A stretch of DNA of 64,000 nt from a virus (lineage: Duplodnaviria; Caudoviricetes). A program made the translations under genes and the position numbers. Location of the stretch: the IMG/VR virus record IMGVR_UViG_3300009031_000221, positions 224,001 through 288,000 of that record; one strand, written 5' to 3'. Below the pieces are notes generated by a model. It saw only the letters and a program-made list of their open reading frames with translations. It did not search any database and was not told the DNA's origin. The number at the start of each line of letters is the position of its first letter. Position 1 is the stretch's first letter. This document shows positions 27,295 to 29,702 of this stretch, in pieces.

Positions 27295-27435
27295 TCCGGA
27301 TATGCGAGTGGCTAAACTGGAACTCCCTCTTGCGAGGTGGTGCTGGGATCGAACCAGCGACTTTGTACTCCAAAAGAACACGCCCTACCAACTGGGCTAA
27401 CCATCGTGTAAGTTTGGCCTATTGCATATCCGAAA
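27295..27435 (-). ncRNA. Module-bearing tRNA-like RNA 1 (permuted; module on the acceptor stem)
   Basis: Ends pair as TCGGATATGC/GCATATCCGG; internal loop AATAG/CACTC; AAACT/AGTTT; TACACG; then D, anticodon (TTG) and T arms. Confidence 0.75.
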
Positions 27436-27463
27436 CTGGTTGTTCCCCGTAGGAAACGAATGA

Positions 27464-27602
27464 TTTTCAAATGCACGAGTGCGAAAGCTGAACTACCCTT
27501 GCGGGCGAAAGTGGGAGTTGAACCCACGACATCAGGCTTATTATGCTTGCGCTCTACCAAGTGAGCTATTTCGTGTGAGCTTACGCTATTGTGCATTCGA
27601 AA
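27464..27602 (-). ncRNA. Module-bearing tRNA-like RNA 2 (permuted)
   Basis: TTTCGAATGCA/TGCATTTGAAA; AATAG/CACTC; AAGCT/AGCTT; CACACG; anticodon AAT. Confidence 0.75.
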
Positions 27603-27616
27603 CTGTTTGATTTAGA

Positions 27617-27763
27617 GGATCCTGCGAGTGGTCAAGCTGTGTACCTGTTGAATTCCTTACGGAACCCAACAGATCGATTGGGATTTGAACCCAAACTTTT
27701 AGCTTAGGAGGCTAAAGTTCAACCAAGAACTTTCGTGTGAGCTAGACCTGTTGCATAATCCTG
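27617..27763 (-). ncRNA. Module-bearing tRNA-like RNA 3 (permuted)
   Basis: GGAT..TGC/GCA..ATCC; AACAG/CACTC; GTC-AGCT/AGCT-GAC; CACACG; anticodon CCT. Confidence 0.72.
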
Positions 27764-27765
27764 GA

Positions 27766-27905
27766 TGGGGTTTTGGGAGTTGAACCCAAGCTTGTAAGCT
27801 TCATATGGTGGCATCCTAGAGCATTGCGGCTATCGGATGCCGAGTAACGAAGCAGGTTACCTTCGAGTGTGAATCAAAGTGCCGAACCGTTCGGCGTAAA
27901 CCCCA
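27766..27905 (-). ncRNA. Module-bearing tRNA-like RNA 4 (module in the variable arm; anticodon CAC)
   Basis: Acceptor TGGGGTT/AACCCCA; insert GCTTC-GTTACTC-GGCATCC..GGATGCC-ACCATAT-GAAGC-TTACAAG. Confidence 0.75.
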
Positions 27906-27916
27906 ATTGAGAAACA

Positions 27917-28066
27917 GTGAACCCGCCAGGATTCGAACCTGGATACATGCGTGTGGGCTTTCCTGATTGGCTCAATGTCTTCTCACGAAGGCACAGAGCC
28001 GAGAATGAAAGCCTTTGCTAAAGCAATCTACAAAAAGATTGTGTCCTACCATTGGACGACAGGCTC
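27917..28066 (-). ncRNA. Module-bearing tRNA-like RNA 5 (variable arm; 8-nt anticodon loop)
   Basis: Acceptor GAGCCTG/CGGGTTC; insert GGCTTTC-ATTCTC-GGCTC..GAGCC-AATCAG-GAAAGCC-CACACG. Confidence 0.75.
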
Positions 28067-28184
28067 ATTTGAACAGGTATCGCTACCAATCCCGCCATGG
28101 GAGGTTGGTCAAGTCTGGTGACCATCCTGTTCTCAACATCGGTAGTCAACCGTTTAACATTCCATCCGACTAACCAATGGAATG

Positions 28185-28327
28185 TGGAGAGGGTGGAGGG
28201 ATTCGAACCCTCGTACAAGGCGTGTGAGTTCGTTCAGTTTTCATGGCATTGCTGCCACGAGAGTAGATGAACTGTTGCTTAAAACAGCTTGGAAATAGCT
28301 GCGTCCTAACCGCTAGACGACACCCTC
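28185..28327 (-). ncRNA. Module-bearing tRNA-like RNA 6 (Glu-like, TTC; variable arm; CCA encoded)
   Basis: Acceptor GAGGGTG/CACCCTC; insert GTTC..TACTCTC-GTGGCA-GCAA-TGCCAT..GAAC-TCACACG. Confidence 0.75.
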
Positions 28328-28537
28328 AGTTGCTAGTCTTTCCTAGCTGTCAACAAATGATTGAGCATGTGCCCGGATTTTTACCGGATTGTTCCCTCAC
28401 GGGAAGAGGCTTGACAACAAGAGGGAACTCTGATGGTTGTTCGTTGTACACCGTACAACCATACTCGTTTTTTCTCTTGCCCAGATTACAGGACTCAGGC
28501 GATCAATCCTTTGTCTTTCGTCCATTAGCCGAACACA

Positions 28538-28614
28538 TGGTAGCGGGAGTGGGATTTGAACCCACGAACTCTTGGGTATGAACCAAGCGAGATACCGGAC
28601 TTCTCCATCCCGCA
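28538..28614 (-). tRNA. tRNA-Met(CAT), initiator-like
   Basis: Loop TT-CAT-AC; 1:72 mismatch; CCA encoded. Confidence 0.85.
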
Positions 28615-28819
28615 AACAATGACCCCATCCGATTCGCCGATCTGGGTCGTCTTCGCTAGTTCACGTCGTTTTAGCCGACATCGCAACATGGTCATGCATT
28701 GTGTCTATTTCCACCGTCAAGGGTCTTTGCCTCTTGTCAAGGGTTCTTTGCCTCTTGTCAGCAGTCTATTCCCGCTGTCTTTCCGGCCATCTGCAGATAG
28801 TACCGGAAACTGTCATTAG

Positions 28820-28886
28820 AGACCCCAGCCGGGTTCGAACCGACTTCCGCAAAGCGGACGACCAACCGGTTTTCCCGGGTGGGGCA
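28820..28886 (-). other. Degenerate tRNA-like element
   Basis: T arm GTCGG-TTCGAAC-CCGGC and acceptor GCCCCA/TGGGGT; the anticodon arm has only a 3-nt loop. Confidence 0.4.
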
Positions 28887-28949
28887 TAGATGCCCTTGTG
28901 AGATACCCACTTCTCCCCTTGTGAGGGAATGATAGGGCGAACCATTTAG

Positions 28950-29100
28950 CGGGGATTGAAGGAGTTGAACCCTCATAGCTTGTACGCTTCGCGTTTGGTT
29001 TGGTTCCCATAAGGCCTTGCGAGCCAAGGAACCGAGTTTTGAAGCGTGTTGAAATTGCTTTTCAGGCAAGTGCCAGAACACCATACTGGCGTGAATCCCC
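28950..29100 (-). ncRNA. Module-bearing tRNA-like RNA 7 (Phe-like, GAA; variable arm)
   Basis: Acceptor GGGGATT/AATCCCC; insert CGCTTC-AAAACTC-GGTTCC..GGAACC-AAACC..GAAGCG-TACAAG. Confidence 0.75.
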
Positions 29101-29239
29101 GTTGTGCCCAATGAGGGCTATTGAACAAGACACTAGAAGTTGACGCGCCCCGGAATTACACCGGATAAGGTCTAGAACCTACAGTTCATCTCACCCATGA
29201 TCATAAGTGAAGGCTGGCAGGAATACTGCTACGCGACAA

Positions 29240-29383
29240 GGCTGGGGATGTTGGACTTGAACCAACGACAAGAGGCTTAAAATGCGTGTAAATTCTTGGC
29301 GATTGGTTGTTCCCTGACCCACAAGGAGCCTAGGAACGAGTTGCCGAATTAATTTCTCTGCTCTACCACTGAGCTAATCCCCA
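29240..29383 (-). ncRNA. Module-bearing tRNA-like RNA 8 (module in the anticodon loop)
   Basis: Acceptor TGGGGAT/ATCCCCA; insert AATTC-GGC-AACTC-GTTCC..GGAAC-AACCAATC-GCC..GAATT-TACACG. Confidence 0.75.
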
Positions 29384-29561
29384 ATTTTGCTGGTCTTTCC
29401 CAGCGGTCATCCACGTAGCGGTTTGACGCGGTACGTGAAGTAGTGGAGTACCGGAGTGCCCGATCCACTCTCTTAGCGTCCGGTGAATTCACATTCATTC
29501 GGATTACACCCCGATGCTTGAACACACGGCGTTGTTCTCAACATTCGGCTAACACTGTTAA

Positions 29562-29702
29562 GTAACGGAGGTGGGAGTCGAACCCACAATTCGTGTAAGT
29601 TTCACGATTTGTCCCTTCCTTGCGGTTGGGACGAGTTGCGAAACTGGGGCTTTTTGTGTTTGATCTAAAAGTCAAATGCCTTTACCGTTTGGCTACTCCG
29701 TC
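29562..29702 (-). ncRNA. Module-bearing tRNA-like RNA 9 (Leu-like body; variable arm; 8-nt anticodon loop)
   Basis: Acceptor GACGGAG/CTCCGTT; insert GTTTC-GCAACTC-GTCCC..GGGAC-AAATCGT-GAAAC-TTACACG. Confidence 0.75.

Follow-up and report, generated by a model that had tools for sequence, protein, structure and literature searches.

The genome of a 536-kb phage and those of its relatives carry arrays of 130-150-nt tRNA look-alikes with one conserved module in common, which raises the question of whether these are interrupted tRNA genes, working tRNAs with an outsized arm, decoys for nucleases or relatives of the Y RNAs. Conservation of Y RNAs and Ro60 extends from bacteria to humans, and we know of no role assigned to the tRNA-like half of the bacterial Y RNAs. 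Starting from one stretch of the phage genome (64,000 nucleotides, hereafter the window), we arrive at a reading which, on balance, we favour: the elements are tRNA-shaped non-coding RNAs that form a new Y-RNA-like family.

All nine elements described in an earlier, sequence-only reading of the window, each with a tRNA-like body and the module, are present on the minus strand between 27295 and 29702. Their sizes, given there as 139-152 nt, are 132-151 nt when measured. RNAfold and the Rfam tRNA alignments also agree with the three kinds of placement: the module lies in the variable region in five elements and in the anticodon loop in one, and forms a closing stem in the remaining three. The elements are listed below with their matches to the Rfam tRNA model (RF00005) and to two covariance models of the module, R1 (trained on 12 relatives and two window copies) and R2.

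Element A, 29563..29702, minus strand: variable-region type with module 29592-29645 and an anticodon loop of 8 nt (Rfam tRNA 47.8 bits, ~69 nt being inserted; R2 36 bits; cloverleaf plus extra arm in RNAfold)
Element B, 29242..29383, minus strand: module 29285-29350 instead of the anticodon loop (Rfam tRNA 43.3 bits, the loop being replaced by 81 nt; R2 17.8 bits, E 0.025)
Element C, 28951..29100, minus strand: variable-region type, module 28979-29046, anticodon loop GAA (no match to the Rfam tRNA model; R1 17.7 bits though untrained; R2 28.3 bits; RNAfold folds agree)
Element D, 28188..28327, minus strand: variable-region type, module 28221-28273, UUC loop with C37 (Rfam tRNA 41.7 bits; R2 19.7 bits)
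Element E, 27918..28066, minus strand: variable-region type, module 27950-28013, 8-nt anticodon loop (Rfam tRNA 36.5 bits; R1 22.7 bits though untrained; R2 28.3 bits)
Element F, 27767..27904, minus strand: variable-region type, module 27791-27854, CAC loop, 6-bp D stem (R1 22.6 bits though untrained; R2 34.4 bits; RNAfold fold agrees)
Element G, 27617..27761, minus strand: closing-stem (Y-topology) unit with a tRNA-like core at 27675-27735, enclosed by paired ends (P2, 8/9 bp), the internal loop, P1 and a CACACG tail (RNAfold -52.1 kcal/mol, z -5.0; core a partial Rfam tRNA match, 39.6 bits)
Element H, 27465..27602, minus strand: closing-stem unit with a tRNA-like core at 27503-27575, AAU loop, 5-bp acceptor stem (P1 5 bp and P2 12 bp by descriptor; closing stem in RNAfold; core Rfam tRNA 47.5 bits)
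Element I, 27295..27435, minus strand: closing-stem unit with a tRNA-like core at 27334-27406 (closing stem of 11 bp in RNAfold; P1 5 bp and P2 11 bp by descriptor; core Rfam tRNA 48.1 bits, with mismatches in the acceptor)

The gathering score of the Rfam tRNA model is thus reached by eight of the nine elements (36.5-48.1 bits, with partial matches at 27675-27735 and 27506-27573), and a DNA search of the array against GenBank phages returned only matches to a canonical tRNA-Met inside the array.

The module is ~48 nt long and consists of P1, an internal loop with an invariant CUC, P2 and, after P1, an ACA(A/C)G tail. P1, internal loop and P2 make up the minimum-energy fold in each of the six hairpin modules (elements A to F; RNAfold), five of which are located between the anticodon stem and the T stem and the sixth in place of the anticodon loop (Rfam tRNA alignments and parses). 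In the three closing-stem units of the window, the RNA's own ends pair over 9-12 bp as P2, followed by an AAYA / ACUC internal loop and then by P1 and a YACACG tail, with the D arm, anticodon arm and T arm enclosed (RNAfold and descriptor). The stretches 27572-27638 and 27407-27487 had also been considered as contiguous 'spacer' modules between tRNAs; this was dropped for the closing-stem reading, which is preferred because the long-range P2 has 9-12 bp against 3-5 bp in the contiguous version, and because RNAfold and many relatives agree with it.

The module letters noticed in the earlier reading hold up in an alignment of 41 copies, where CUC, ACA and the final G are found in 41 of 41 and the G that follows CUC in 35 of 41. 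In the 64-kb window (both strands, filters off), the best six matches of R1 all fall in the array, three of them in untrained copies, and R2 recovers the six hairpin modules at 36 to 17.8 bits. Covariation, which had been proposed as the check on the structure, is strong: 87.5% of the cells at paired positions are paired, against 33-49% when the partners are slid, and changes on both sides occur in 167 cells against 49 in shuffles, the observed score being reached by none of 500 shuffles. It follows from this covariation that the structure of the module is conserved. Genome-wide, a loosened descriptor gave only chance-like matches beyond the array, and in the 536-kb genome the module is restricted to positions 27.3-29.7 kb of the window. 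These results support the module as a real, covarying, position-independent unit carried by tRNA mimics.

A scan of 2.9 million viral contigs that used the RNA only, with a validation step after it, also yielded module-bearing contigs. The relatives hold 67 distinct hairpin-type elements and ~50 closing-stem units with a P2 of 9-14 bp, the closing-stem descriptor giving 98 matches against 13 in a reversed-sequence control. The tRNA mimic retains its T arm, a GG-containing D arm and, in most cases, the anticodon arm, and the 67 hairpin-type elements have 7-bp acceptor stems and canonical T arms. The decoding features are less regular: U33 is present in 31 of 47 seven-nt anticodon loops (66%) vs 337 of 349 (97%) for canonical tRNAs of the same loci, the loop has a length other than 7 nt in 16 of 65 module-bearing elements, and the D stem has 5-6 bp in 55 of 65. 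Elements with common acceptor stems and D arms differ in the anticodon loop, and the module-bearing anticodons (e.g. Phe, Glu, Val) are duplicated among the 68 ARAGORN-called tRNA genes of the genome. Judged by these features, the module-bearing bodies are poor and not normal decoders. Neither a free 3' end nor an anticodon loop is universally needed, since the closing-stem units lack the former and element B the latter.

Among known RNA classes, a search of 27000-30000 with Rfam (E <= 10) returned tRNA only, with no ribozyme, intron or Y RNA family, in keeping with the initial impression that no described class could be recognised. The proposed comparison with YrlA (RF02553) gave no match: the gathering score is 69 bits, the best score in the array is 16.3 bits and the best one genome-wide is 25 bits, at tandem-tRNA junctions; canonical YrlA was not found in the genome. 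The extra arm of class II tRNAs is far smaller than ~48 nt. Like tRNASec, allo-tRNAs and class II tRNAs (Mukai et al. 2017, PMC5389517), the elements combine a long D stem and small loop with a long extra arm in the variable region, but their acceptor/T arrangement is 7/5, not 8/4 or 9/3, their extra arm of ~48 nt has conserved loop letters and long single-stranded linkers, and they show many kinds of anticodon.

Among the closest known systems are the YrlA-type Y RNAs of bacteria and phages (Chen et al. 2014, PMC4201824). In both, genes of Y RNAs that include a tRNA-like domain adjoin Ro60 genes (PMC4201824, PMC12135203, PMC7824862), as in the Thermus phage phiLo, which has Yrl1/Yrl2 plus its Ro60 (PMC12135203). 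As in YrlA, a small RNA joins a tRNA-like domain (D and T arms) to a stem / internal loop / stem, and its gene, often in multiple copies, stands beside a gene of Ro60 type (helical ring and vWA). The closing-stem members (three in the window, ~50 in relatives) are predicted to have paired 5' and 3' ends like those of a Y RNA, and in locus L124 the order T arm - closed acceptor - D arm, assigned by eye, is that of YrlA. In the hairpin-type members, the stem is capped and inserted, and the ends would not pair as a Y-RNA stem. Where YrlA has GNCGAA/CGAA, the elements have CUC and ACA(A/C)G; the conserved Rsr/Ro60-binding motif of YrlA, GNCGAAN0-1G (PMC4201824, PMC12135203), occurs in 2 of 67 elements vs 8.6 expected in shuffles. 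Additionally, and unlike YrlA, most members have the normal tRNA order, with free acceptor ends, an anticodon loop and the hairpin in the variable region, the arrays reach nine copies with diversified anticodon loops, and the candidate protein partner is too divergent for Pfam TROVE. This candidate is encoded near the array:

668-aa ORF, 23951..25957, minus strand: probable divergent Ro60, with helical repeats that contain a beta insert, followed by a vWA domain carrying the MIDAS residues

According to fold comparisons, this vWA protein is probably a divergent Ro60, Ro60-like by fold only. The best Foldseek matches of the full-length protein are TROVE/Ro60 entries, and its N-terminal helical domain alone ranks 2nvo, 9l5y and 1yvp as 1-3 of 48,161 PDB chains, with Z scores of 9.9, 8.5 and 7.3 for these three Ro60 representatives and 6.6 for the next chain; with Foldseek, the N-terminal domain by itself gave nothing significant. 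The vWA domain scores Z 14.7, and D471, S473, S475 (D-x-S-x-S), T534 and D562 are invariant. An extra beta insert (residues ~74-141) is not seen in Ro60, and the true start may be further in, since homologues align from ~residue 49. Neither the protein nor 24 homologues nor the six-frame translation of the genome matches Pfam TROVE (PF05731); Pfam, NCBIfam and PDB profile searches matched the vWA part or nothing, and in the AlphaFold DB clusters the sole match was an unnamed homologue from the family itself.

Three other genes of the neighbourhood bear on the interpretation:

RtcB RNA ligase, 10773..12179, minus strand: Pfam RtcB 300.8 bits, 15 kb from the array
ThiF/E1-like adenylyltransferase, 12181..12795, minus strand: Pfam ThiF 65.8 bits, also NCBIfam, with a match in 31 of 36 related loci
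332-aa protein, 21122..22120, minus strand: function unassigned, with a tblastn match in 32 of 36 related loci

Of the two neighbours of which the array had been placed just upstream, the vWA gene is indeed close (1.3 kb), but the proximity of RtcB, at 15 kb, was overstated; nor is a link to RtcB kept in relatives, where it occurs near the Ro60-like gene in 2 of 36 loci, as a weak match with 26% identity. The expected tie of the modules to a TROVE/vWA gene, on the other hand, is observed: the Ro60-like gene is present in 20 of 20 module-bearing contigs checked, usually within 10 kb, and in four contigs it is mostly 3-7 kb from an array. In a complete 192-kb relative, three module units (one at the model threshold, two by eye) lie 0.2-0.6 kb upstream of the Ro60-like gene, and the only three canonical tRNAs are 150 kb off; in another phage, module units directly follow a Ro60-like homologue of 26% identity. 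Many relatives have the array abutting the ThiF-like gene, beginning just after it and 2-9 kb from the Ro60-like gene. In most relatives, a homologue of the 332-aa protein (itself without a match in Pfam, PHROGs, NCBIfam, PDB profile or Atlas) comes directly after the Ro60-like gene. Where the gene order is rearranged (the window, L036 and L124), the arrays adjoin the Ro60-like gene and not the ThiF-like one. In one genome there is, besides a first array, another that lies 225 kb from the Ro60-like gene, and the virus Rctr197k has the gene with no detectable module. As the carriers may all be members of a single viral clade (41-60% identity), the co-occurrence could reflect inheritance. The idea of Y-RNA-like scaffolds is partly supported, by the predicted Y-RNA topology of three elements and by the Ro60-like neighbour, but not by GNCGAA, which is absent, or by a link to RtcB, which relatives do not keep.

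Against the Y-RNA-like family have to be set several readings in which the tRNA body or the module works differently. As in the archaeal bulge-helix-bulge system (EndA and RtcB), one unit is found at several tRNA positions, including a leader-trailer version, and this position independence is the hallmark of that system; the module might then be its phage counterpart, a processing or splicing signal at which some endonuclease would cut CUC and ACAAG and RtcB would seal the exons, yielding ordinary tRNAs from interrupted genes and freeing others from leader-trailer stems. The two conserved single-stranded motifs staggered across P1, the RtcB encoded in the genome, a tail-to-T-stem link that is most often 4 nt and so as long as a normal variable loop, and a CCA encoded at a rate like that of canonical tRNAs (30% vs 33%) speak for such a signal, which we nevertheless hold to be quite unlikely. 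The 536-kb genome has no EndA endonuclease (PF01974; the profile was detected in six control genomes, with scores exceeding the cut-off in four, all archaeal), and P1 has 5-10 bp, so the geometry of 3-nt bulges and 4-bp helix is missing, the single strands being a 5-nt internal loop and a 6-nt tail. Moreover, the bodies are not canonical once the module is removed: A/C-rich 5' linkers, mostly of 7-18 nt, and abnormal D arms and anticodon loops would remain, and the closing-stem cores of the window would have acceptor stems of only 3-6 bp. Canonical isoacceptors are already in the genome, and RtcB is not syntenic in relatives. A bacteriophage analogue of bulge-helix-bulge in which an unrecognised endonuclease cuts CUC and ACAAG and RtcB reseals is decidedly improbable; if true, tRNA introns spliced by proteins, along with leader-trailer stems for processing, would be seen in bacterial viruses for the first time.

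That the elements are working tRNAs, aminoacylated and used in translation, with the outsized variable arm serving a phage factor as a handle for identity or recruitment, seems very unlikely to us, although in the hairpin-type members the 7-bp acceptor stems are perfect and there are a discriminator base, canonical T loops, a purine at position 37 in 89% and anticodons for ~17 different amino acids. One third miss U33, several have 8-nt loops or A34 anticodons (AUC, AAU, AUG), the closing-stem members would not be chargeable, element B is without an anticodon loop, different anticodons sit on common acceptor stems and D arms, and canonical tRNAs make all of them redundant. Decoys or baits aimed at anticodon nucleases of the host, acting independently of the Ro60-like protein, with the module binding the ThiF/E1-like or the 332-aa protein instead or merely stabilising the RNA, are unlikely as well. 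Hypervariable anticodon loops on conserved scaffolds would suit such a role, as would the arrays that start right after the ThiF-like gene and the 332-aa gene conserved as well as the Ro60-like one, but element B has no loop to offer, the rearranged loci keep their arrays by the Ro60-like and not the ThiF-like gene, and no nuclease target is known.

In the Y-RNA-like reading, the elements would be expressed as stable RNAs, in which an L-shaped tRNA mimic is joined to the ~48-nt module; a look through the listed RNA runs for any with the array of the window or of a relative gave none. The module would most likely be a docking site, able to work as an arm of the variable region, as a replacement of the anticodon loop or as a terminal stem made of the RNA's own ends, and its most likely partner would be the divergent Ro60 (TROVE-vWA) protein encoded nearby. 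The RNA would then tether this protein to tRNA-recognising factors, or serve as their bait, which is what bacterial YrlA is thought to do; any role as decoys or in repair is putative. The arrays can be regarded as a natural experiment, in which one putative docking module was moved around a tRNA scaffold in three topologies and multiplied up to nine-fold per genome, with the anticodon loops diversified. This mobility, multiplication and diversification argue for two working parts, the tRNA shape and the module, with tRNA-recognising factors as the targets. The divergent Ro60 would have a new candidate RNA recognition code, CUC and ACAAG, not CGAA, and the system may be relevant to the ways in which the tRNA pool of the host is protected or manipulated by huge phages. 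Together, the 67 hairpin-type and ~50 closing-stem units make a large covarying alignment, sufficient as the basis of a new Rfam family and of structural work.

Regarding the upstream side of the array, neither the promoter motif placed at 29794 nor the boxA placed at 29717 is confirmed: a sigma-70 scan finds nothing at these sites, and GTAGAAT has no genome-wide enrichment. What can be recognised by eye directly before the first element is a GC hairpin with a U run after it.

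Based on a direct reading of the minus strand from 29720 to 27295 and a simple descriptor run, six hairpin modules were identified, each ordered as stem P1, a 5' loop with a terminal CUC, stem P2 with an initial G, a 3' loop, the return strand of P1 and YACA(C/A)G. The module fold is the minimum-energy fold (RNAfold) in all six (z from -1.7 to -5.1). A covariance model of the module (R1), trained on 12 modules of related phages plus two window copies, placed its top six matches inside the array when the whole window was searched on both strands with filters off, recovering three untrained window copies (at 22.7, 22.6 and 17.7 bits). 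The Rfam tRNA model aligned three elements as complete tRNAs carrying 70-81-nt insertions in the window scans; the genome scan added a fourth. No credible Rfam family besides tRNA was found in the array at E <= 10, and a loosened descriptor run over the 536-kb genome gave nothing convincing outside it. The observation of the sequence-only reading, namely nine tRNA-like elements (A to I in array order) with one common module, is confirmed.

The last three elements were resolved by applying to the window a topology found in a relative (L129), in which the 5' and 3' flanks of a tRNA-like core pair with each other. The 5' part of this unit consists of the P2 3' strand, loop, P1 3' strand, CACACG and the core, after which follow, toward the 3' end, the P1 5' strand, NNCUC and the P2 5' strand. 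Such a closing stem is the same module, open at the P2 apex and shut around the acceptor end. The window elements of this type, from RNAfold, are:

27761-27617, minus strand, closing-stem element G
27602-27465, minus strand, closing-stem element H
27435-27295, minus strand, closing-stem element I

In all three, closing stems of 9-11 bp, an AAYA / ACUC loop and P1 enclose D, anticodon and T hairpins. Contiguous "spacer" modules in this stretch, with much weaker pairings, were dropped in favour of the closing-stem reading. In relatives, the corresponding descriptor returned about 50 distinct units (98 matches on real sequence versus 13 on reversed), with P2 stems of 9-14 bp and unrelated sequences. 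In element B, the module replaces the anticodon loop; together with the hairpins and the RNAfold closing stems, this makes the earlier attachment counts (five in the variable region, one at the anticodon, three on the acceptor stem) correct.

Through the 668-aa protein encoded beside the array, 35 related loci were found in IMG/VR, in which R1 and then R2 (a second module model, built from 41 sequences) detected 44 modules. The covariation analysis, run on the 41-sequence alignment, showed pairing in 87.5% of cells (versus 60% when shuffled and 33-49% with partners slid) and double changes at 14 of 14 pairs; its covariation score was reached in none of 500 shuffles. CUC and ACA are invariant, as is the tail-final G (41/41), and a G follows CUC in 35 of 41. 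When the flanks were parsed, 67 distinct elements, 110-151 nt long, could be delimited in full. Each has an acceptor stem of 7 bp and a canonical T arm (UUCGAnU loop); an A/C-rich, mostly CC-terminated linker lies 5' of the module, whose tail usually ends 4 nt from the T stem. These data suffice to define a new RNA family.

What all members share is the T/D elbow and the module; as decoders, the hairpin-type bodies are odd. Position 33 is U in 31 of 47 of their seven-nt anticodon loops versus 337 of 349 canonical tRNAs from the same loci, the loop has another length in 16/65, and the D stem is 5-6 bp in 55/65 (loops of 3-6 nt). Anticodons such as AUC, AAU and AUG are present, anticodon loops vary among elements with common acceptor stems and D arms, and canonical tRNAs in the genome already cover the anticodons of the window elements (Phe, Glu, Val). 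Element B has no anticodon loop at all, the 3' end would not be free in closing-stem units, and the acceptor stem of G-I is just 3-6 bp, starting within the tail (RNAfold and by eye). Hairpin-type bodies, with the module as a capped hairpin, could be amenable to tRNA-like processing; CCA is encoded in 30% of them versus 33% of nearby canonical tRNAs.

For the 668-aa protein, Pfam gave a weak vWA domain and nothing else, and TROVE (Pfam) had no match anywhere in the genome. The AlphaFold model (24 homologues, pLDDT 75) combines a beta insert and a helical repeat region with a vWA domain, and its best PDB matches in Foldseek are the phiLo TROVE domain, vertebrate Ro60 and Deinococcus Rsr (about 540 columns, E from 5e-8 to 1e-5, low TM scores). 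Because the vWA domain could drive these full-length matches, residues 50-460 were modelled alone (pLDDT 81). Foldseek gave no significant match for this region; with an all-against-representatives aligner, the first three of 48,161 chains were Deinococcus Rsr (Z 9.9), phiLo Ro60 (Z 8.5) and Xenopus Ro60 (Z 7.3), the next match having Z 6.6. The MIDAS residues are invariant. The protein is quite probably a divergent Ro60.

An RNA-only DNA pattern, scanned against 2.9 million IMG/VR viral contigs, matched at least 118 stretches. Among the matches listed, at least 17 contigs carry R2-validated modules: 12 where the Ro60-like gene was already known, four newly found and one 32-kb fragment left out of the gene check. 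The gene is present in all four new contigs (54-60% identity), mostly 3-7 kb from the array, and in five of five further contigs below R2 validation (41-58% identity), four of which (L074's contig excepted) have solid closing-stem units by descriptor. The suggested association with a TROVE/vWA gene, here the Ro60-like gene, was found in 20 of the 20 module-bearing contigs checked (12 + 4 + 4, among the matches listed), with the counter-point that the carriers may all belong to a single clade. Just three canonical tRNAs, 150 kb off, are present in a complete relative of 192 kb; three tandem module units (one reaching the model threshold, at 25.5 bits, and two read by eye) lie upstream of its Ro60-like gene, at a distance of 0.2-0.6 kb. 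In another phage (L124), a homologue 26% identical to the Ro60-like protein is directly followed by module units. Also counting against the linkage, a second array in one genome lies 225 kb away from the Ro60-like gene, and in Rctr197k the gene is present and no module was found.

Several of the L124 units (L124:2296-2850, plus strand, downstream of the homologue) have TACAAG tails. In one, the tRNA-like core is circularly permuted and runs T arm / closed acceptor / D arm (by eye), a YrlA-like order; another is a tRNA-like body whose T-arm region has gained about 37 nt including the tail, perhaps a fourth position of attachment.

Y RNAs of bacteria and phages join a tRNA-like domain to a Ro60-binding stem and lie beside a Ro60 gene (PMC4201824, PMC12135203), and TROVE proteins are occasionally carried by jumbo phages (PMC7824862). 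The module RNAs resemble YrlA and other Y RNAs in having a tRNA-like domain and a stem beside a Ro60-type gene (here Ro60-like by fold) and, for closing-stem members, in predicted topology. They lack GNCGAA, which occurs in 2 of the 67 elements where chance would give 8.6, and they miss the YrlA score: run against the Rfam YrlA model (RF02553), as had been suggested, the array reaches 16 bits for a threshold of 69. This 536-kb genome contains no canonical YrlA. With tRNASec and allo-tRNAs (PMC5389517) they share a long D stem and an extra arm, but they differ in their 7/5 acceptor/T configuration and in arm size. An archaeal-type intron was rejected, given that BHB geometry is absent and the bodies are still abnormal with the module removed; the lack of EndA in the genome also counts against it. 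The position independence of the module would fit a processing role, a formal and unlikely alternative. The best-supported reading, to which we give a slightly better than even chance, is that the module RNAs are protein-docking tRNA mimics of the Y-RNA type, for which we infer both docking partner and function. The family, the topology and the linkage to the Ro60-like gene support this proposal of the sequence-only reading; the link to RtcB is not conserved: array and RtcB are 15 kb apart in the window, and RtcB is near the Ro60-like gene in just 2 of 36 loci.

As a further counter-point to the linkage, the block is conserved in the order Ro60-like gene, 332-aa gene, ThiF-like gene and array, which often puts the array directly beside the ThiF-like gene. 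The 332-aa protein (21122-22120, minus strand) has no recognisable family and is conserved immediately 3' of the Ro60-like gene in 32/36 related loci (in the range L002-L036), with C263, G275, C277 and L278 among its invariant residues and D273 and C265 conserved in at least 90%. The short ThiF/E1-like adenylyltransferase (12181-12795, minus strand) is conserved in 31/36 loci; the array starts about 0-300 nt past its gene end in many relatives (L014, L017, L021, L024, L030, L032, L033 and others), and in the window it abuts RtcB, not the array. Three HNH endonuclease genes (19962-21125, 25794-26555 and 13764-14492, minus strand) are interspersed among the Ro60-like, ThiF and RNA genes, consistent with the block's gene order being rearranged relative to relatives.

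The source record, from a groundwater metagenome assembly, is 536 kb long and rated 100% complete. ARAGORN finds 68 tRNA genes in the whole genome, and the minus-strand island in the window holds 45 tRNA genes and a tmRNA. Outside the window (G000:C1:213498-213586 and elsewhere), ARAGORN reports a tRNA with a four-base anticodon (tgaa) and a tRNA-Stop (tta) suppressor. About 2 kb (15870-17936) in otherwise gene-dense surroundings are free of ORFs of at least 100 aa on both strands. Directly upstream of element A (about 29722-29745, minus strand), a GGTGC / TTCG loop / GCACC hairpin followed by TTTCTTT has the look of an intrinsic terminator or an attenuator, not of a promoter. A direct repeat unit of about 20 nt (GACAAGAGGCAAAGA..CCCTT) occurs twice in tandem at 28715-28765 (minus strand), in the interval from the canonical tRNA-Met of the array to the following element. 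Finally, 28800-28950 (minus strand) contains a reduced, tRNA-like element that has a T arm and is preceded by two CTCACAAG copies; it matches neither module topology and may be a decayed tenth unit.
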